DNA from: Candidatus Dormibacteria bacterium
GTDB taxonomy: Bacteria > Chloroflexota > Dormibacteria > Aeolococcales > Aeolococcaceae
DNA: 64,000 nucleotides
NCBI GenBank assembly: GCA_044450385.1
Contig: JBIOIZ010000006.1
Location: 339-64,338 of the forward strand
Reading direction: 5' to 3'
Below are positions 25,360-35,146 of the stretch, in pieces. The notes beneath the pieces were generated by a model. That model did no database searches and had not been told where the DNA came from. It saw only the letters and a program-made list of their open reading frames with translations. Numbering within the stretch: position 1 is the stretch's first letter; the number at the start of each line of letters is the position of its first letter. Both the position numbers and the translations under genes were made by a program.

Positions 25360-25979
25360 ATTCGTCCGGTGAGCGTTGCGAGCCCGTCGCCGGTCAGATC
25401 GGCAAGGCCGGCCCTGCGACCGGTGAGCGCCAGGATCATCGACGCGAGCGGCCCCTTGACCTCCGGGCCTGTTCCGCGGGTCCAGTCTGCGTCGGTCGCG
25501 ACCAGGGTCAGGCCGGTGGCCCTGCGCTTACCGCCGAGCAGGAGGTTGCCCCGGATCACGAAATCGCCGACCAGGGTCAGCGCCTCTGGCTGGTAGCTGC
25601 GCGCGATCCCGAGCGGCCGGCGGATGTCCTCGCCGTGGATCACCACCTCGGCGACCATCGCGTCAAGCGGTCCTGGCGGTCCCGTGGTCCGATCCAGCTG
25701 TGCCTTGAAGCCCGCGAGGGTGTCGGCCGGGGTCGCTCCCAATTCCTCCTTCACGCCCTTCTCGTTCATTGCGTTGAACTGAAATCCCGTCCCCGCGAAC
25801 TTCCCGAAGAACCGTCCCGGGGTCATCTTCGCAGTGGTGGTCATGTGCGCGAGCACGTCACGGACCGTCCACCCTGAGCAGAGCGACGGTGTCGACCACT
25901 GCACATCGCTGATGGTCTCCAGGTCCCCGATCAGAGCCACCCGCTCAGCCCGTATGAGCGGCCACTGGTTTCCGGCCAC
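25356..25979 (-). CDS. maleylpyruvate isomerase family (MDMPI/DinB superfamily) protein
   Basis: PSLCSGWTVRDVLAH, IHGEDI, LTGR; GTG start at 25979 after GGAGGA. Confidence 0.85.
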   Translation of the reverse strand: MAGNQWPLIRAERVALIGDLETISDVQWSTPSLCSGWTVRDVLAHMTTTAKMTPGRFFGKFAGTGFQFNAMNEKGVKEELGATPADTLAGFKAQLDRTTGPPGPLDAMVAEVVIHGEDIRRPLGIARSYQPEALTLVGDFVIRGNLLLGGKRRATGLTLVATDADWTRGTGPEVKGPLASMILALTGRRAGLADLTGDGLATLTGRI

Positions 25980-26227
25980 CTCGGTCCTCCACAAGTCCCG
26001 CTGCCGCCCGCGGTTGCGCCTCCGGCGGTGGGTGCGACTGTACAGCGGTCCGGAGAGCAAGTACTGAGCGTCGTTACGAGCAGGAGCTTGCAAGGAGCTT
26101 GAGCTTCCGCTGCTCCCCGCCGGCAGCGGCATCGGGCGCGCCGAAAGAAGGCTCAGGCTGTCCAGTTCTGGGGCCTCAACGCACCAGGTGGTGCTGCAAT
26201 GAGAGGGATGGTCGCACGATGGTGAGC

Positions 26228-26280
26228 CGACCATTCCGAGTACCCCAAACGCCGTTGTCCGGCGTGTTAACTGTGTATGA
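26228..26280 (+). repeat. copy 1 of a 53-bp direct repeat; putative ECF promoter with leaderless start
   Basis: CGACCATTCCGAGTACCCCAAACGCCGTTGTCCGGCGTGTTAACTGTGTATGA; 50/53 identical to 29238-29290. Confidence 0.9.
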
Positions 26281-26789
26281 CGACTCTCGCGAGTTCGGCG
26301 GCGGCGGAGGTTGCGGTGGGCGTGCTCGACTTCGATGACTTCTTCGAAGCCTTTGCGCAGCAGATTGCCGCGATCATCGCGGTCACAACGGGGGATGCAG
26401 CCCTCGCGGAGGATGCCACGCAGGAGGCAATGGCGCGCGCTTACACGAGGTGGAGTCGCGTGTCGACGCTCGACCGGCCCGACCTCTGGGTCATCCGGGT
26501 TGCTGCCAACATAGCCATCGGTGCGTGGAGACGGCGCAGGCGTGAAGTCGGTCTCTCCGATTCCACCCCCAATGTCGAGCCACGCGACGAGATACGAGTG
26601 CTCTGGCTCCGATGGGCCATGGAGCGGCTCACACCAGAGGACCGGTTGCTACTCATCCTGCGACACCGCGACGGCATGTCCATCGACGAGATCAGCGCAT
26701 CTCTGTCGAAGTCGCCCCACACGATCGCCGCCTATCTCAAGAGAGCACGCTTTCGCTTGCGTTCGCTGCTCGCTGCGGACGACGGGTGA
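26277..26789 (+). CDS. ECF sigma-70 factor
   Basis: region 2 AEDATQEAMARAY...WVIRVAAN; region 4 LTPEDRLLLILRHRDGMSIDEISASL. Confidence 0.9.
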   Translation: MTTLASSAAAEVAVGVLDFDDFFEAFAQQIAAIIAVTTGDAALAEDATQEAMARAYTRWSRVSTLDRPDLWVIRVAANIAIGAWRRRRREVGLSDSTPNVEPRDEIRVLWLRWAMERLTPEDRLLLILRHRDGMSIDEISASLSKSPHTIAAYLKRARFRLRSLLAADDG

Positions 26790-27958
26790 GCAATATTCAG
26801 CGCGACCTCGACGATCTGGGTCGACGACTATGGCCTCGATCCGACGCGCTGCGTCCGGCGATCTCCAAACGTTCCGCACCGGGAAGGATCTCCCGCAGGC
26901 GCGGAAGGGGGCGAGACATTTTGGCCACCGTCGCGTTGGTTGCCGTCGTCGTGGGCGTTGTGACCATTCCCATCGCCCTGGGGAGATTCGTGAGCCGTCA
27001 CACCGAACCGCAACCCAACGCGGAGGCCCCGTCGCGAGCTGTTCTCCACCACAACGGGGAGATCGTGATGGGCGTCGACAACAGCCTCGTCGCGATCGAC
27101 CCAGCCACCGGCCGCCACCACGTGATCCTCTCCGTCCCAGCCGGCGACGTGGTCGCGAGTCCAACTTACTCGCCAGACGGCACCAAGCTCGCATACCTGC
27201 GGGGTCGTGTCGTCGGTTTCGGCAACAACGTGAGCGGCAGCTCTGACGCAATGGATTCGATTTGGATTCTTGACATTGCGACTGGCCGGGCCAGGCAGCT
27301 CACGAAGTGTCAGGGATGTGGTCCCTACGATTACATCGACTGGTCACCTGACGGCACTCGTCTTGCCTTCTCCGAAGATGACCAAAGTGGAACCCTCCAG
27401 CTCCACCTCATCAACGTCGACGGTTCTCACCTTAGGCAGCTGACCCATTTCCCAGCGGCCCAGAACGCGACGCAACCGACCTGGTCGCCCGACGGAACTC
27501 GGATCGCGTTCACCTTCTTCGCCGTTGCAAAGGACCTCAACCAAATGACCGTCTTCCCAACTGTCAACATCGACGTCATCCGGCCCGACGGCACGGGGTT
27601 TGCCGTGCTTGTCGAAGCAGCGCCGGCCGAGCTTGGCCAAGATGGGGGTCCGTACCTCGACCCGGCCTGGTCCCCCGACGGCTCGAGGATCGCTTATCTA
27701 CTCGACCCGTGGCCCCGAGGATCGGGCGTTGATTTCCAGTTGTGGCTCATGCATCCCGACGGCTCGCATCGCACCGACATCTTCCAGTACCCAAACTGCT
27801 GTGTGAACGCCTGGGGCGGCCCCGAGTGGTCACCCGATGGCACGCGGATCGCGGTCGTGACGGCCCATAGCCTCTGGGTGATGAACGCCGACGGTAGCGC
27901 CCGGACGTCGCCGGGCGTGATGAGCGGCGACCGCCCGGCCTGGCAGCCCCTGCCGTGA
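26786..27958 (+). CDS. putative anti-sigma factor: short cytoplasmic N-terminus, one TM, TolB-like PD40 beta-propeller
   Basis: GTGA overlap with the sigma stop; TM ILATVALVAVVVGVVTIPIAL; repeated (W/Y)SPDG(T/S)(R/K)(I/L)A. Confidence 0.82.
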   Translation: MSNIQRDLDDLGRRLWPRSDALRPAISKRSAPGRISRRRGRGRDILATVALVAVVVGVVTIPIALGRFVSRHTEPQPNAEAPSRAVLHHNGEIVMGVDNSLVAIDPATGRHHVILSVPAGDVVASPTYSPDGTKLAYLRGRVVGFGNNVSGSSDAMDSIWILDIATGRARQLTKCQGCGPYDYIDWSPDGTRLAFSEDDQSGTLQLHLINVDGSHLRQLTHFPAAQNATQPTWSPDGTRIAFTFFAVAKDLNQMTVFPTVNIDVIRPDGTGFAVLVEAAPAELGQDGGPYLDPAWSPDGSRIAYLLDPWPRGSGVDFQLWLMHPDGSHRTDIFQYPNCCVNAWGGPEWSPDGTRIAVVTAHSLWVMNADGSARTSPGVMSGDRPAWQPLP

Positions 27959-28022
27959 CCACTCTCGGCGCATGCATCTCACCGGCAGATCCGATGATTC
28001 AATCAATCGGACCGCCGGCACG

Positions 28023-29081
28023 ATGAGCTGGTGGCGACGCGCATGGATCAGCGGGGCGACCGCCCTTGTCGTCAGCGCTTGTGCCGGTGAAGCAACAGCG
28101 GGCCATACACCGCGTGCGTCAAGGGCTTCGTCGCATGAAACGCCGACAGAAACGAGCAGTCTCCCAGCGCACGGAGAGATCGCCTTCACTCTGGAGTTCG
28201 GCCCCGAAGGAGACGGGGGCGACATCCTGTGCACCATTGAGCCCAACGGCACCGGCCTCAGAATGCTGACCGCCGTCACCCAGGGGTTCGCTGGGAACGC
28301 GGACCCAGCGTGGACGGCGACGGGTGATCGGATTCTTTTCTATGAAGCCTCCCCTCCGGGCGCTTCGTATCCAGACTGGACGTCGAGCAACCTGTACTCG
28401 ATGGACCCCAATGGCGGCTCCATCCGCCAGCTCACATTCGAGCCCACCCATGTCTATGACGAAAGCCCTGCGATCTCGCCAGATGGCACGCGGATCGCGT
28501 TCGACCGGTTCGACCTAACCGGACGTCGGAGCGGAATCTATCTCATGAATGCCGACGGGAGCCACATTGTTCGGATCACAGCGCCACCGGCGTCCGCTGC
28601 CGGCGGCGACCTGTATCCGAGCTTTTCACCTGATGGCACGAAGCTTGCCTTCATTCGGGATGCGATTCCCGATGGCGAAGGAGCGCTCTACACAGTTGGG
28701 ATCGACGGAACGGGGCTTCGCCAGGTCACGCCGACGACCTTCCTGGACGCCACGAGACCACATTGGTCGCCGGACGGGTCGAGGCTCTTGTTCGGTACCC
28801 CCGAATCGGACCATACCGCCTCGGGGCGCAACGTCTACGTGGTCAACAGTGATGGGAGCGGGCTGATCGCGCTCACGCACGAGTACGACCCCGATTGGGT
28901 GGAGAACCCGTCCTGGTCTCCCGATGGCACGATGATCGTCTTCGACCAGTATCAGGACGGCACCCATTTCGTCGGGCTCGTGGTCATGCGTGCCGACGGC
29001 TCCCACCCAACGGTTATCTGGCACCCCACGCCGAGCACCGACGTCTTCCCTCGAGGCCCGGTCTGGGGCACGGCTCCATAA
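28023..29081 (+). CDS. TolB-like PD40 beta-propeller lipoprotein
   Basis: lipobox-like LVVSAC; repeated SPDG(T/S) blades; start could be 27972. Confidence 0.82.
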   Translation: MSWWRRAWISGATALVVSACAGEATAGHTPRASRASSHETPTETSSLPAHGEIAFTLEFGPEGDGGDILCTIEPNGTGLRMLTAVTQGFAGNADPAWTATGDRILFYEASPPGASYPDWTSSNLYSMDPNGGSIRQLTFEPTHVYDESPAISPDGTRIAFDRFDLTGRRSGIYLMNADGSHIVRITAPPASAAGGDLYPSFSPDGTKLAFIRDAIPDGEGALYTVGIDGTGLRQVTPTTFLDATRPHWSPDGSRLLFGTPESDHTASGRNVYVVNSDGSGLIALTHEYDPDWVENPSWSPDGTMIVFDQYQDGTHFVGLVVMRADGSHPTVIWHPTPSTDVFPRGPVWGTAP

Positions 29082-29237
29082 GCTGATTTAATCCGTCGAG
29101 ACGCCGAGCCGCGGAACCTTGGCGACCGAAAGTCAGCCTTGCGCTTTCGTCGTGACCCTATGGTGCGAGGCGGATCCTTCTCGCCGACCATGCGAGCCCG
29201 AGAGGCCAGTGAGGGGTGGCCGGTCGCATGGAGCGGG

Positions 29238-29290
29238 CGACCATTCCGAGTACCCCGAACGGCGTTGTCCGGCGTGTTAACGGTGTATGA
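29238..29290 (+). repeat. copy 2 of the 53-bp direct repeat; putative ECF-dependent promoter
   Basis: CGACCATTCCGAGTACCCCGAACGGCGTTGTCCGGCGTGTTAACGGTGTATGA, 3010 bp downstream of copy 1. Confidence 0.9.
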
Positions 29291-29319
29291 GGACGCGGTT
29301 TCCTGCAGGAGGCTGGGAA

Positions 29320-29844
29320 ATGACTGAGCGCGATGACGTCAATGCAGCCGGAACGGTGACCCGACGGAACGCACTGCGAGCGGCGGGAGTGGGTGGGCTT
29401 GGTGTGATCGCAGCCGTGGGCTTGCCGGTCGGTGTATCCGCCTCGACGGGAACGCGTAACGGATCGGACGATGAAGTGATCGTCGGCGCGTATCAGGTGC
29501 ACATCACACCGCAAGGCGTCACGACGTTCCCGGGCGTTGTGGCTTTCGGTGCGGGCGGGACCATGGTGGAGGTGGACGGCGGCAGCCCCGGCCCGGCAAC
29601 AGGCGTGGGTGGATGGCGCCGCCTCGACGACGCAACCTTCGTCTTCACATTCCGCACATTCAACTTCGACAAGTCGGGCAATCTGAGCACCATCGTGACC
29701 ATCCGCGCCTCGATTACCTCTGTCGAGAACGGTGCCCACTTCCAAGGTCACTTCAGCGTCACCATCACGAACCCATCGGGGCTCGTGCTGTTCACAGGAC
29801 CGGGGACTCTGCGCGGTGACCGGCTGGACATCGCGGGGCCTTAG
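29320..29844 (+). CDS. TAT-exported beta-rich hypothetical protein
   Basis: TRRNALR twin-arginine motif, hydrophobic stretch and VSA site; GGAGG RBS; alternative in-frame ATG at 29287 inside the repeat. Confidence 0.78.
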   Translation: MTERDDVNAAGTVTRRNALRAAGVGGLGVIAAVGLPVGVSASTGTRNGSDDEVIVGAYQVHITPQGVTTFPGVVAFGAGGTMVEVDGGSPGPATGVGGWRRLDDATFVFTFRTFNFDKSGNLSTIVTIRASITSVENGAHFQGHFSVTITNPSGLVLFTGPGTLRGDRLDIAGP

Positions 29845-30114
29845 TATCAACGGCAGACTTGGTGGCGGTATCGTCGGTTCGCTTTCCTGACAGGGTGCGC
29901 GATGCCGTGCTGAAGGAACAGGTTCTGGTCGAGGCACACACAGGCGTCGGCGAACCCTGGGGATTCCGCCACGTCGCGACCCAAGGCACCGTTACAACTT
30001 CTGCACTTGCCCCGGCCGACCGCCGGTGCTAGCGTCGGGTGCGCGGGCCTGGCGAACGTCGCCGAGCCTGCCGGCGAGAGAGCAAGCAGACCAACGCGTA
30101 TCCGGAGGCACATC

Positions 30115-31587
30115 ATGCTCGAGGATGTCGGGATTCCTCGGCTCGTAGTTGGTGGCCTGGGTTCGGGTTCCGGGAAGACCTCGATCAGCCTGGGTCTCAC
30201 CGCCGCGCTCCGCGCACGCGGCCACACCGTCCAGACCTTCAAGGTCGGCGCCGACTTCATCGACACGGCGTATCTCGCGCATGCAAGCCGCAGGCCCTGT
30301 CGCAACCTCGATTCCTGGCTTCTCGGACACGAGGGGGTGCGCCGCTCGTTCGCCCATGGGTCACTCGGCGCCGACCGTGCGATCGTCGAGGGAGCCATGG
30401 GTGTGCTCGATGGCCATGGCATGGCACCGGAATCCTCCGAATCCGCTCCGCACGAGTTCCCGGGAAGCACGCTGGAGGTGGCGCGCATCATCGCGGCGCC
30501 GGTCGTGCTGGTGGTCGACGCATGGGCCATGGGCGAGACCGCTGCGGCGGCGGCACTGGGGATCAAGCAGCTCGACAGAGCCGGCAGCGTGATCGGCGTG
30601 ATCCTCAACGACGTCCCCAATGACTACCGCCGCCGCGTCATCGAGGACGCCGTCTGGTCGCTTGCAAGGATGCCGGTGCTCGGCGCTCTCCCCCATATCC
30701 AGTCGGTGCGCATCCCCGAGCTGCGGACCGGGCTCCTGCCGCTCCTCCAGAACCCGCACGTGGACGAGGCGATCACGGAGCTGGGTGAGGCGGTCAGCCG
30801 CCACTGCGACCTCGACCTCATCGAACGGCTCATGGAGGGAGCGCATCCCGTGCGCCCCGCGCCGTGGCGCCACGTCGATCAACCCACCGAGCAACCGGTG
30901 CGCATCGGCGTGGCCTTCGACGACGCATTCTCCTTCTACTACGCGGAAAATCTCGAGTTGCTCGAAGCCGCCGGCGCGGAGATCGTCACCTTCTCGCCGC
31001 TCGAAGATTCCGCCCTGCCACGCGACCTCGGTCTCGTCTACATGGGCGGTGGCATCTCCGAGGCATACGTGTCCAGGCTCGCGGGCAACCAGCCGTTCAT
31101 CGAATCCTTCAGGCGTGCCCGGGCCCACGGCGTTCCCGTCTACGCGGAGGGATTCGGGCTGCAGTATTCCGCTCGGTCGCTGCGCACCAGCGACGGCGCC
31201 GTCCATCACATGGCGGACATCATCCCGATCGACATCGCGCTCGAGGCGGGCACGCTGCACCGCGGCTATCGCGACCTCAGCATTGCGACGTCGTCGATGC
31301 TCGGTCCGGTCGGGACGCGTCTTCGCGGGCACGAGTTCCACTTCAGCCGGATGCTGTCGGGCGGCGACTGCCTCAACCCGGCGTACACGATGCACGACTG
31401 CGATGGCGAGCCAATGGGCTGTGAGGGATGGACCGATCCCCTCGTGCTCGCGTCGTTTATCCACCTGCACTTCGGTCAGGAGCAGCAGCTCGCCGGCCGT
31501 CTCGTGGCCGCGGCCCGCCAGTCGCTCGACCGCAGAACCAGCGCGACCCTGGCGGGGCGCGGCAGTCGATTCCCCGCCCCGGTGTAG
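30115..31587 (+). CDS. cobB: cobyrinate a,c-diamide synthase (CobB/CbiA) homologue with degenerate glutaminase domain
   Basis: GSGKT, FKVGADFID, NLD, EGAMGVLDG, AFSFYYAENL, GHEFH; YAEGFG where the family has YAECGG; GGAGG RBS. Confidence 0.85.
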   Translation: MLEDVGIPRLVVGGLGSGSGKTSISLGLTAALRARGHTVQTFKVGADFIDTAYLAHASRRPCRNLDSWLLGHEGVRRSFAHGSLGADRAIVEGAMGVLDGHGMAPESSESAPHEFPGSTLEVARIIAAPVVLVVDAWAMGETAAAAALGIKQLDRAGSVIGVILNDVPNDYRRRVIEDAVWSLARMPVLGALPHIQSVRIPELRTGLLPLLQNPHVDEAITELGEAVSRHCDLDLIERLMEGAHPVRPAPWRHVDQPTEQPVRIGVAFDDAFSFYYAENLELLEAAGAEIVTFSPLEDSALPRDLGLVYMGGGISEAYVSRLAGNQPFIESFRRARAHGVPVYAEGFGLQYSARSLRTSDGAVHHMADIIPIDIALEAGTLHRGYRDLSIATSSMLGPVGTRLRGHEFHFSRMLSGGDCLNPAYTMHDCDGEPMGCEGWTDPLVLASFIHLHFGQEQQLAGRLVAAARQSLDRRTSATLAGRGSRFPAPV

Positions 31588-31599
31588 GCTTGGGATGCG

Positions 31600-33000
31600 A
31601 TGTCCCAGGCCCCGTCCACGATCGGTGAATTGCGTCGTGCGGAGTACCGCGTCCTGCCCGTCAGGACCGAGCTCCGCCGCAACCTGATCCGCAAGCTCAG
31701 CAACCACGAGGAACTGTTCGGCGGCATCCGCGGATACGACGACTCGGTGATCCCGCAGATCGAGAACGCAATCCTCGCGGGCCAGGACATGGTCCTCCTC
31801 GGCGAGCGCGGGCAGGCGAAATCGCGGCTCATCAGGGCGCTGATCACCCTGCTCGACGACGCGGTTCCGGCCATCGCGGGATGTGAGATCAATGATGATC
31901 CGTACGCGCCGATCTGCCGTCGCTGCCGCGACCTGGTGGCCGACTACGGAGATGCGACCGAGCTCGCGTGGATCACCCCCGAGCAGCGATATTCGGAGAA
32001 GCTGGCAACCCCTGACACGTCGATCGCCGACCTGATCGGCGAGGTCGATCCCATCCGCGTGGCCGAGGGACGCTATCTGAGCGACGAGCTCACCATCCAT
32101 TACGGGCTCATCCCGCGTACCAACCGGGGGATCTTCGCCATCAACGAGCTCCCCGATCTCGCCGAGCGCATCCAGGTCGGCCTGCTCAACATCATCGAAG
32201 AGCGCGATGTGCAGATCCGCGGTTACCGCCTGCGTCTCCCCCTCGACGTGTACGTGGTTGCGACTGCAAACCCCGAGGACTACACCAACCGCGGGCGCAT
32301 CATCACGCCGCTCAAGGACCGCTTCGGTGCGCAAGTGCGCACGCACTACCCGCACACCCTCGACGACGAGATCGCCATCGCCGAGCAGGAGCGCATGACG
32401 TTCGACGACATGCCGGTTCCGGTGACCGTCCCCGGATTCATGCAGGAGATCGTCGCCGAGTTGTCGCACGTCGCACGGCGCCACCCGCAGGTGAACCAGC
32501 GCAGCGGCGTATCGGTCCGGCTCACCACCGCGAACTACGAGAACCTCGCCGCCGGAGCGCTTCGCCGCGCGCTGCGAACCGGCGAGCGGGAGGCGGTCGC
32601 CCGGATCAGCGATCTGCCCGCACTCACATCATCGACAGCCGGAAAGATCGAGCTCGAGACCTGGGAGGATGGCGACGACGGCGCCGTGCTCGAGAAGCTG
32701 ATGCGGACCGCTTGCAACAACGTCTTCCGACGCCACTTCACCGTCCAGGAATTCAGCGACCTCGTGCAGCGTTTCGAACGCGGCGGCTTCACCGTCGAGG
32801 TCGGCGATCAACACCCGATTTCCGACTACGCACAGGCGCTCACCGAGCTCGCCGGCGTCGAGCGCGCTCGCCAGCGCCTCGGAGAGCCCGACAGCGACGC
32901 GATGCGCGTCGCGGTACTCGAATTCGTGCTCGAGGGCCTGCATCTCGGCAAACGCCTCAACAAGACCGCACTCGAGGGAAGCGCGGTCTATGGAGGATGA
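31600..33000 (+). CDS. Mg-chelatase-like/MoxR-like AAA+ ATPase (Rv0958-like)
   Basis: GERGQAKS Walker A, INELPDLAERIQV, ANPEDYTNRGRIITPLKDRF. Confidence 0.88.
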   Translation: MSQAPSTIGELRRAEYRVLPVRTELRRNLIRKLSNHEELFGGIRGYDDSVIPQIENAILAGQDMVLLGERGQAKSRLIRALITLLDDAVPAIAGCEINDDPYAPICRRCRDLVADYGDATELAWITPEQRYSEKLATPDTSIADLIGEVDPIRVAEGRYLSDELTIHYGLIPRTNRGIFAINELPDLAERIQVGLLNIIEERDVQIRGYRLRLPLDVYVVATANPEDYTNRGRIITPLKDRFGAQVRTHYPHTLDDEIAIAEQERMTFDDMPVPVTVPGFMQEIVAELSHVARRHPQVNQRSGVSVRLTTANYENLAAGALRRALRTGEREAVARISDLPALTSSTAGKIELETWEDGDDGAVLEKLMRTACNNVFRRHFTVQEFSDLVQRFERGGFTVEVGDQHPISDYAQALTELAGVERARQRLGEPDSDAMRVAVLEFVLEGLHLGKRLNKTALEGSAVYGG

Positions 33001-35146
33001 ACCGCTCGCGGCGCCGCGGCGACACTTCCGTCAGCACCGCTTCAGCATCTGGGACGGTAGCCAGGATCCACTGGGCGATGATGCCGACGCGCTCTTCGAC
33101 CGCCTGAGCGAAGACGTCTTCCACGGTTGGGATTTTGAGACGGCGTTACGCCGTCTGCTCAGCCAGGGATGGCGTGATCGTGACGGACGCAAGTTCGCGG
33201 GGCTCGAGGAGTTGATGGAGCGTTTGCGCAAGCAACGGCAGAAACAGCTGGAGCGCTACAGCCTCGACGACGTGTTCAAGGACATCGAGGAAAAGCTCGA
33301 CAACGTGCTTCGCCTCGAGCGCCAGGGGATTGACGAGCGCGTCAAGAGCGCAACCGACGGCAGTGCGCAGCGGATTCTCGAGCGCGTGGCGAAGAAGCGC
33401 CGCGAGCACCTCGACAACCTGCCCCAGGAGCCGGGCGGGGTGATCCGCGAGCTGCAGGGCTATGAATTCATGGACCAGCGCGCCGAGCAGGCGTTTCAGA
33501 AGCTGCTCGAGGAGATCAAGCAGAACGTCGTCAACACGTACTTCAAGCAGATGGCCGAGCAGATGGGCCAGATGTCGCAGCAGGACGTCAGTGCCCTGCG
33601 CGAGATGGCGCGCGACCTCAATGCGCTGGTGCGCCAGAAGCTCGAGGGCGTGCCCGACGCGCAGCTCCAGCACAACTACGAGGATTTCCTGAAGAAGTGG
33701 GGCTCGATGTTTCCCGACGCGCCCGCAACCTTCGATGAGTTCCTCGCCCAGCTCGCGGCGCAGATGGCACGCATGGACTCGCTGATGCAGTCGCTCTCAC
33801 CTGAGATGCGCCACCAGCTCGAGGAGATGATCTCGGCCACCTTCGGCGATCCCGATCTGCAGGCGCAGCTCGCTGAGCTGATGAGCGGACTCGAGCTCCT
33901 CTCCGATCGCCGTCATCTCGGCCAGCGATATTCCTTCTTCGGCAACGAACAGCTGCCCTTTGACGAGGCGATGGGCGTCATGGATCGGTTGCAGTCCATC
34001 GAGGAACTCGAGCGCGGGCTGCGGGGCATGTACCGCGGTGAACCCCTCGACAGCGCCACAGAGGAAGCATTGCGCGACGTCCTCGGCGACAATGCGGCGC
34101 GCGACCTCTCGCGTCTCCAGCGCATGACCGATCAGCTCGAGCAGCGTGGGCTCATCGAGCGCGACGACGAAGGGATGCGGCTAACCGCCCGGGGCCTGCG
34201 GCGCATCGGACAGAAGGCGCTCGGCGATCTCTTCGCGCGCCTGCGTCGCGATCGCTTCGGGGACCATCCGGTGTCGCGTCACGGACAGGGTGGGGACCGC
34301 GAGGAGGACACCAAGCCATACGAATTCGGGGATGTGTTCGACCTCGACGTGCGTGAGACGCTCATGAACGCGGTGAGACGCGAAGCCGATGCCAACGACC
34401 GCGATTTCGATCAGCGTGACACACGGCCGGCGGGGATCCCGGCTCCGGCTTCAAACCGGACTATTCAGCCTCCGCCGGAATCCCCACCAGCCTTCGTTCA
34501 GCGAGCATCGCGGCGTTCTGTGCCTCGGCTCTTGCCAGAGGACTTTGTGGTGCATCGGTCGGATACGCTGACGCGGTCGGCCACGGTGCTCATGCTTGAT
34601 ATGAGCCGGTCGATGCCGCTGCGCGGCTATTTTTACGCTGCGAAAAAGGTTGCGCTCGCGCTGGATTCATTGATACGCAGTGCGTATCCCAGGGATACCT
34701 TGCACATCATCGGGTTCAGTGATCTGGCGCGGGAGATCAAGCCGTCTGCGTTGCCGCATTTGTCGGTGAACGAGTACGTGTATGGGACCAACATGCAGCA
34801 TGGCCTGATGCTGGCGCGGCGGTTGCTGGCGAAGGATCCCGGGGAGAACAAACAGATCATCATCGTGAGTGATGGGGAGCCGACGGCACACATCGAGAAC
34901 GGGCGTCCGGTGTTCTTCTATCCGCCGCTGCCGGAGACGTTTCACAAGACGTTGCTCGAGGTCAAACGGTGCACGCGCGAGAACATTGTCATCAACACGT
35001 TCATGCTCGAGTCGAATCATCATCTCGTGCAATTCGTGAATCAGATGACCCGGCTCAACCGTGGACGCGCGTTCTTCATCAGCCCGGATCGGCTGGGTGA
35101 CTATGTCCTCGTCGACTACGTGAGCTCGAAGCGAGGAGCGGCGTAG
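32990..35146 (+). CDS. VWA-domain protein, AAA+ partner (Rv0959-like)
   Basis: WDGSQDP N-terminus, MIDAS DMSRSM, TNMQHGL, SDGEPTAH; overlaps the ATPase stop. Confidence 0.88.
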   Translation: MEDEPLAAPRRHFRQHRFSIWDGSQDPLGDDADALFDRLSEDVFHGWDFETALRRLLSQGWRDRDGRKFAGLEELMERLRKQRQKQLERYSLDDVFKDIEEKLDNVLRLERQGIDERVKSATDGSAQRILERVAKKRREHLDNLPQEPGGVIRELQGYEFMDQRAEQAFQKLLEEIKQNVVNTYFKQMAEQMGQMSQQDVSALREMARDLNALVRQKLEGVPDAQLQHNYEDFLKKWGSMFPDAPATFDEFLAQLAAQMARMDSLMQSLSPEMRHQLEEMISATFGDPDLQAQLAELMSGLELLSDRRHLGQRYSFFGNEQLPFDEAMGVMDRLQSIEELERGLRGMYRGEPLDSATEEALRDVLGDNAARDLSRLQRMTDQLEQRGLIERDDEGMRLTARGLRRIGQKALGDLFARLRRDRFGDHPVSRHGQGGDREEDTKPYEFGDVFDLDVRETLMNAVRREADANDRDFDQRDTRPAGIPAPASNRTIQPPPESPPAFVQRASRRSVPRLLPEDFVVHRSDTLTRSATVLMLDMSRSMPLRGYFYAAKKVALALDSLIRSAYPRDTLHIIGFSDLAREIKPSALPHLSVNEYVYGTNMQHGLMLARRLLAKDPGENKQIIIVSDGEPTAHIENGRPVFFYPPLPETFHKTLLEVKRCTRENIVINTFMLESNHHLVQFVNQMTRLNRGRAFFISPDRLGDYVLVDYVSSKRGAA

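Follow-up and report, generated by a model that had tools for sequence, protein, structure and literature searches.

The analysis presented here concerns a stretch of 64,000 nucleotides (hereafter, the window) from the genome of a Candidatus Dormibacterota soil bacterium (3.33 Mb in 191 contigs), and centres on a short element that stands both before the gene of a sigma factor of the extracytoplasmic function (ECF) type and, 3010 bp further on, before the gene of a barrel-shaped protein likely to be exported by the twin-arginine translocation (Tat) pathway. We propose, with a probability of about two in three, that this element is the sigma factor's own promoter and that its duplication before the barrel gene would have joined both genes into a sense-and-respond unit read by the same sigma factor.

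Copy 1 (26228-26280) and copy 2 (29238-29290) are identical at 50 of 53 positions, and the identity extends to 26284 and 29294 (53/57), with four substitutions between the copies. Copy 1 (26228..26284, plus strand) holds a -35 hexamer, GTACCC (26240-26245), a 17-nt spacer, a -10 box, CGTGTTA (26263-26269), and, after 7 nt, the ATG at 26277, so that it takes in the first 8 nt of the sigma gene. Both boxes are intact in copy 2 (29238..29294, plus strand), with GTACCC at 29250-29255, CGTGTTA at 29273-29279 and an ATG at 29287; its final letters, ATGAGGAC, are identical to the start of the sigma ortholog of a related genome (G015). When all 191 contigs were scanned on both strands without gaps, no third copy appeared, and the next best match was 32/53. 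The earlier note on this DNA had described the two copies and the ATG at the end of each, in frame with the downstream open reading frame (ORF), and both descriptions are borne out; it had also considered that the element might occur genome-wide, and the scan of all contigs gave two copies only. A repetitive extragenic palindrome, a miniature inverted-repeat transposable element or another dispersed repeat is ruled out by this count of two in 3.3 Mb and by the placement of the element in relatives, which carry one per genome, before a sigma gene.

Conservation of the likely promoter and predicted regulon

The gene behind copy 1 (26277..26789, plus strand) encodes a protein of 170 aa whose Sigma70_r2 and r4_2 domains score above the Pfam cut-offs. 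TIGR02937 is matched at 63.2 (cut-off 42.9), and sigma2 and sigma4 are the only domains, which places the protein among the ECF (group 4) sigma factors. Its best family, TIGR02983 (SigE_strep), is reached with 101.9 bits, below the cut-off of 141.55, and is matched by all 26 aligned members of the sigma clade. The ten closest named loci (55-82%) all come from Ca. Dormibacterota, and no plasmid match for the sigma was found. The clade appears to be an unclassified ECF clade of Dormibacteria. The literature searched, with most subscription papers outside its coverage, gave no description of this clade or motif, and neither GTACC nor TACCC occurs in the examined part of the supplement of PMC7826278, the remainder and figures of which could hold a matching group.

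Conservation upstream of orthologous genes is a standard way to infer the promoter that an ECF factor recognizes for itself (PMC3817407). Sigma relatives at E <= 1e-25 were present in 29 of 117 family genomes, the bacterium's own included; 29 of the 37 matches outside the window were fetched, which with the window gives 30 loci, 29 of them with upstream DNA. All of these 29 loci (window included) carry a CGT(G/C)T-type -10 at 3-8 nt before an in-frame start, and in 11 of them an ATG follows after exactly 7 nt. The -35 hexamer differs by sigma subclade (GTACCC-type in 16 loci, GTCCCC in 9, TC(A/G)(T/G)CC in 4), and its type changes together with the region 4.2 residues of the adjacent sigma. 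Among nine clade-A orthologs, a set that excludes L083 with its 19-nt spacer, both boxes are near-invariant while most of the spacer and flanks vary; the promoter is therefore most likely GTACCC-N17-CGTGTTA-N7-ATG, with a leaderless start.

The element is thus likely to be the autoregulatory promoter of the ECF sigma, and the earlier proposal of autoregulation gains comparative support from the conservation of the motif before orthologous sigmas. The same alignment revises two details of that proposal. The (A/G)AAC box, put forward as the -35, is rejected, since no more than 12 nt separate it from the -10 and its conservation is below that of GTACCC, which forms the invariant upstream block of the orthologs at 17 nt from CGTGTTA; the A-run around it, partly conserved in clade A (6-7/9), may be a feature of the spacer. 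An additional regulator site within the repeat finds no favour in the poorly conserved flanks and spacer of the orthologs. No sigma70-type promoter was found within 25900-30150.

Regarding the sigma itself, the D of the D..R motif in region 2.4, which has been linked to -10 recognition (PMC3397946), is replaced by G at residue 82 of the window protein and likewise in the two genome orthologs closest to it. The G-bearing sigmas keep the same -10 motif as their D-bearing relatives.

The scan of the genome and its relatives that the earlier note had suggested was run with a position weight matrix (PWM), built from the nine clade-A orthologs with the window sequences left out, and with sequence patterns. 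Both copies share the top PWM score in the genome (28.0) and the next site reaches 19.5; the predicted regulon therefore consists of two sites, the sigma operon itself and the barrel gene. No wider regulon was found in G000 by pattern and PWM, strict patterns being liable to miss weak targets. Across 42 genus genomes, the strict pattern gave seven matches in six genomes, namely six before sigma orthologs plus copy 2 (control, 0). A second pattern gave seven matches in seven of the 117 family genomes (control, 1); five of these precede clade-A sigmas, another is an orphan (G483) and the last, in G229, is unexplained. A looser pattern over the 117 genomes returned mostly unrelated matches and was set aside, and a metagenome pattern scan yielded two short contigs with one copy each, before a sigma.

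The orphan site (L227:5090-5446; G483:C398, near 11095) shows a clade-A-type promoter, a 7-nt gap and an ATG with no sigma gene behind, and no clade-A sigma was found in that genome. Either a promoter stub left without its gene or another instance of a copied promoter could account for it.

The putative coupled anti-sigma, the putative lipoprotein and the predicted barrel protein

The putative anti-sigma (26786..27958, plus strand; 390 aa) overlaps the sigma gene at a GTGA, has a single hydrophobic stretch at about residues 45-65 and matches PD40 at E=2e-23 in its extracytoplasmic propeller part, so that the translationally coupled PD40 protein with one transmembrane segment (TM) described earlier is found as described. 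Its N-terminus carries a conserved motif, DL..LG..LWP, and a directly following (+1) gene with this N-terminal motif accompanies the sigma in 29/29 orthologs, which lends comparative support to the idea of a membrane anti-sigma encoded beside the sigma. The +1 position, the coupling and a short conserved cytoplasmic part followed by one TM are all found here. Some members appear frameshifted or cut (the +1 genes of L034, L037, L039 and L083, and the sigma of L042).

Outside the membrane, these proteins differ. Among 21 scanned +1 proteins, the outer domain is PD40 in one, BNR in three, Kelch in two and weakly carboxypeptidase-regulatory-like in one, and 14 have no Pfam match. Conversely, the 53 best PD40 homologs divide into 12 that share the window N-terminus, 32 with other N-termini, for which five types were defined by eye, and nine unassigned or truncated. 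The coupled gene may accordingly be described as a putative mix-and-match anti-sigma, with a conserved N-terminal helix and varied outer domains, and its N-terminus would be the part that binds sigma, to judge from its architecture and from precedent. The notion that the window anti-sigma is a recent chimera was dropped, as 12 of the 53 close PD40 homologs carry the same N-terminus. The public gene call P0156 (window 26786-26920) starts at residue 46 and omits the conserved cytoplasmic motif; an anti-sigma role would therefore be hidden in annotations.

The second PD40 protein between the copies, previously noted as a lipoprotein, is a propeller protein of 352 aa counted from the ATG at 28023 (28023..29081, plus strand; the longest ORF starts at 27972), with a lipobox-like VSA-C at Cys20. 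In G008 and G005, the same sensor (69% and 55%) and lipoprotein (55-57%) stand behind a different sigma (25-26%); the lipoprotein therefore seems to travel with the PD40 sensor and not with the sigma, which fits a co-sensor. It is a candidate co-sensor or output, and a match to it occurs in only 4 of 41 other genus genomes. Its signal (28023-28082) has an RR pair in WRRAW (TARRRVS and TSRRRVS in G008 and G005, respectively) and a weak hydrophobic core, and it is possibly a Tat lipoprotein. The G008 and G005 loci (L224, G008:C4; L225, G005:C8) belong to a second, unrelated ECF clade, 25-26% identical to the window sigma, in which the TM-PD40 sensor has the N-terminus LDAYL.RF.TF. Upstream of both, GAGAAC and then GG(T)CCGGATC/GGTCTGGATC, the latter immediately ahead of the start, make a candidate own promoter of that clade.

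The gene behind copy 2 encodes a protein of 174 aa (29320..29844, plus strand) with the twin-arginine motif TRRNAL and no Pfam or NCBIfam match. Four close homologs (75-83%) were found, and the family amounts to 528 clusters at E <= 0.001; (T/S)RR(N/H)AL is present in all five full-length close homologs, the window protein included. PF10518 (TAT signal) misses the window protein and matches 7 of 123 family members, being the only recurrent Pfam match. None of the 117 family genomes or 401 phylum genomes yielded a close homolog, nor did genome_contigs or viral_contigs.

A model computed from 123 sequences predicts the mature part as an antiparallel barrel of eight strands, at a predicted local distance difference test score (pLDDT) of 94.2; a six-sequence model (pLDDT 49) was unusable. 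The structure comparison proposed in the earlier note was run on this predicted model and gave avidin/lipocalin-like barrel matches, with Z scores of 11-13 to natural barrels: 12.7 for the QH-AmDH alpha domain (root-mean-square deviation, rmsd, 3.4; 107 aligned), 12.4 for OmpA-type barrels (rmsd 4.1; 122 aligned) and 11.7 for avidins, represented by chicken biotin-binding protein (rmsd 3.0; 106 aligned). Designed barrels rank first (Z 15.1). A GxW at the first strand is family-wide, and an Atlas cluster named 'putative lipocalin-like' (TM score 0.88) offers a lead only. At the sequence level, no Pfam lipocalin or avidin match was obtained in the 123 family members, and no PDB sequence match below E = 0.075. 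The output protein is thus predicted to be an avidin/lipocalin-like eight-stranded barrel of a family without a Pfam model, most likely a secreted binder of a small extracellular ligand, a guess that is based on the fold. Resemblance to the calycin-type barrels (avidin/streptavidin, lipocalins) extends to the eight strands, the structural alignment of the predicted model and the GxW at the first strand, whereas identity is 7-19%, OmpA-type barrels score alike and designed barrels higher, and the family here has no Pfam model.

The repeat, its presence in two copies, the conservation of the motif, the order of the genes and the variability of the insertion site are observed, and the barrel fold is predicted; transcription, binding, export and function of the circuit we infer as follows. 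In the resting state, the coupled membrane protein would keep the sigma bound through its short N-terminal helix. A signal from outside, sensed by the PD40 propeller and perhaps by the PD40 lipoprotein, would release it; thereupon it would initiate, at copy 1, a leaderless mRNA covering sigma, anti-sigma and lipoprotein, in a positive feedback. The same free sigma would also start the barrel mRNA at copy 2, to be translated mainly from the Shine-Dalgarno-led ATG at 29320, and the barrel, likely exported by Tat, may bind a small ligand outside the cell.

Origin of the second copy and alternative explanations

Copy 2 carries the first sigma codons together with a motif that is absent before all eight distant barrel homologs examined, and was therefore likely duplicated from the 5' end of the sigma gene. 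A weak gapped similarity continues for about 25 nt upstream of the element (p = 0.03 when compared with random pieces of the window and 0.05 with shuffled sequence). The main start of the barrel gene is probably the ATG at 29320, because a Shine-Dalgarno-like AGGAGG (29307..29312, plus strand) lies 7 nt before it and close homologs start there; the in-frame ATG at 29287 would then be incidental. Two indirect signs point to the copy being present beyond this genome. The called N-terminus of an 83% homolog (P0002), MYEDAVS, corresponds to a translation of window DNA that begins at the end of copy 2 in the adjacent frame. Counting back from that protein, the ATG of its element would lie 32 nt before the Shine-Dalgarno-led ATG and out of frame, where the window has 33, so that the in-frame position here is probably incidental. 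Additionally, homologs of the sigma (85%), the anti-sigma (74%) and the barrel (74%) are each listed on a 5493-bp NCBI contig, probably one and the same. The earlier suggestion of 'recent promoter capture by duplication' consequently holds only in part: a duplication of the sigma 5' end is retained, and its recency is doubtful, given the copy-2 tail at 83% barrel identity and the probable co-occurrence at 74-85%. That copy 2 might preserve the second codon of the ancestor was considered and abandoned, as closer sigma homologs start MT like copy 1.

Several observations weigh against the main reading, that of the sigma's own promoter with a copy driving the barrel gene. The alternatives within the -10 pattern were picked after inspection of the sequences, and the loci, being related, do not count as independent; in L033-L036, moreover, the in-frame start lies only 3-4 nt past the -10, a poor fit to a leaderless start. 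The co-location of the three homologs is read only from the equal 5493-bp size, and the lipoprotein occurs in G034 without an adjacent PD40 anti-sigma. No second copy was found in 28 orthologous loci (best 28-33/57; four loci with <3.5 kb downstream), and a local output promoter is therefore not a general feature of the clade. There is no strong terminator between the lipoprotein gene and copy 2, so that read-through could also drive the barrel. The four substitutions between the copies spare both boxes, an outcome expected for these 15 positions in about 28% of cases by chance and which does not show selection on copy 2, and the orphan promoter-plus-ATG of G483 illustrates that stubs can remain without a sigma. 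These points, from the missing second copies onwards, together with the distant barrel homologs that lack the motif, suit an explanation in which copy 1 is an autoregulatory promoter and copy 2 the leftover stub of a duplication-deletion of the sigma 5' end, the barrel being transcribed by read-through or from another promoter and no true output of the sensor. We consider it rather unlikely, since the boxes and spacing of copy 2 are perfect and its tail persists at 83% barrel identity, whereas the similarity that lies before the element has eroded (p = 0.03-0.05).

It is more improbable that the copies are recombination scars or substrates, a reading in which recombination at the promoter brought in the 3010-bp unit of sigma, anti-sigma and lipoprotein genes or can loop it out, leaving promoter and barrel. 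Direct repeats do flank the three genes, the site is an insertion hotspot and modules are shuffled among relatives; yet the four insert proteins include no recombinase, the insert extends about 140 bp and 680 bp beyond the repeats, and the motif goes with sigma genes and not with barrel genes. About as little credit is due to a motif that serves another sigma or a transcription factor, in a cassette that is then the target of that other regulator and not autoregulated: the genome has 19 sigma70-family matches and ECFs transcribed by another ECF have been described (PMC3817407), but the -35 follows the subclade and region 4.2 residues of the adjacent sigma, and no further motif site was found in the genome. 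An assembly artefact or chance repeat, for which the 191-contig state of the assembly could speak, is highly improbable, as 4 of 57 sites differ between the copies, their flanks are distinct, nothing in the background exceeds 32/53 and the copy-2 tail appears in an independent record. Hence, autoregulation by the sigma, extended to the barrel gene by a promoter copy, is the reading that we retain.

Relation to known systems and genomic setting

The design of the proposed circuit is a textbook one that matches ECF39/ECF51 and Tt-RpoE1/TolB; the case here combines it with a likely functional promoter copy, an unclassified Dormibacteria clade, shuffled sensor domains and, as the probable output, a new barrel family. 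ECF39 subgroups have one-TM anti-sigmas with WD40 propellers, a -35 CAACC and a -10 CGTC, and are 100% actinobacterial (PMC7826278). They resemble the window cassette in the one-TM +1 protein, the propeller sensing, the conserved autoregulatory motif and SigE_strep as best match, and their -10 equals the CGTC of subclade B here, whereas the -35 (GTACCC in the window) and the host (Dormibacterota) differ and the window sigma falls below the TIGR02983 cut-off. ECF51, confined to Actinobacteria, shows a -35 GCAACCG, a -10 GCGTGTC and variable +1 domains (PMC7826278). Its one-TM +1 proteins also lack conserved domains, and its -10 nearly matches the GCGTGTT of the window and equals the GCGTGTC of subclade C; in contrast, its -35 differs from the GTACCC(C) found here, its host range excludes Dormibacterota, and the window insert encodes no partner-switching sigma-domain protein. 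Filing the window sigma in ECF39 or ECF51 was rejected, given the TIGR02983 score (101.9 vs 141.55), the -35 and the host.

In Thermoanaerobacter tengcongensis, the autoregulated ECF Tt-RpoE1 is bound by the 39-residue N-terminus of the TolB-like anti-sigma Tt-TolB (PMC3397946). There, too, the ECF is directly followed by a one-TM TolB-like anti-sigma and the -10 is of CGT type, but the promoter is tGTTAC-N16-CGTC and the anti-sigma has 645 aa, and the likeness drawn here is one of architecture; the accessible part of PMC3397946 describes neither a propeller lipoprotein nor a copied promoter. For the lipoprotein, a comparison in role is offered by CseA of the S. coelicolor sigE-cseABC system, which is encoded alongside an ECF envelope system and has been suggested to modulate a membrane sensor; there the sensor is a histidine kinase and no anti-sigma is involved (PMC6767563).

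A broader and tentative idea, to which we assign somewhat less than even odds, is that this Dormibacteria ECF clade may work as a plug-and-play kit, in which the sigma with the anti-sigma N-terminus, the outer sensor and the output would be swapped independently and a new output would be wired by copying about 57-85 bp of the sigma 5' end; the result would be a circuit with two promoters, portable and secreting ligand-binding barrels of a new family. Its basis is that one N-terminus is found with PD40, BNR, Kelch and other domains, and one PD40 sensor behind six N-termini. If this were true, the subclade-specific -35 boxes would be natural orthogonal genetic switches. The locus offers a concrete promoter and regulon prediction for an uncultured soil lineage whose ECF sigmas are not covered in the literature searched, and illustrates cleanly how a regulon may grow through a copy of the sigma's own promoter and how sensor domains are shuffled among anti-sigmas. 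It also attaches a regulatory context and a fold to an unannotated family of 528 clusters. The overall design being familiar, specialists may find it neat rather than startling.

With respect to its setting, the cassette occupies an insert of approximate extent 26089..29974 between an MDMPI-family gene and cobB, as homology with relatives ends near 26088 and resumes near 29975. GC content drops from about 0.70 to 0.60-0.66 within it. The insert consists of four genes and nothing else, which supports the earlier description of the cassette as self-contained. Across five relatives examined (L220, L221, L222, L223 and L228), the site is empty in G029 and G003 (gap 63-80 bp) and holds unrelated cargo in G019, G034 and G015, which marks the interval from the MDMPI-family gene to cobB as a hotspot of insertion. 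Judged from the translations, G019 would have ATP-dependent ligase-like and glycosylase-like ORFs at this site, G034 would have mer-like genes, and G015 a DUF222-like ORF.

Two further features were observed in the surroundings. A 10-bp inverted repeat (26205..26237; z = -2.65) lies just upstream of the copy-1 -35, its right arm being the first 10 nt of copy 1; 3 of 200 shuffles were equally good, only a degraded form precedes copy 2, and by eye it was not found in the closest orthologs. Just past cobB, an ATPase-like ORF (31600-33000) is followed by an ORF of 718 aa (32990-35146) with a VWA-like C-terminal part, as identified by eye.

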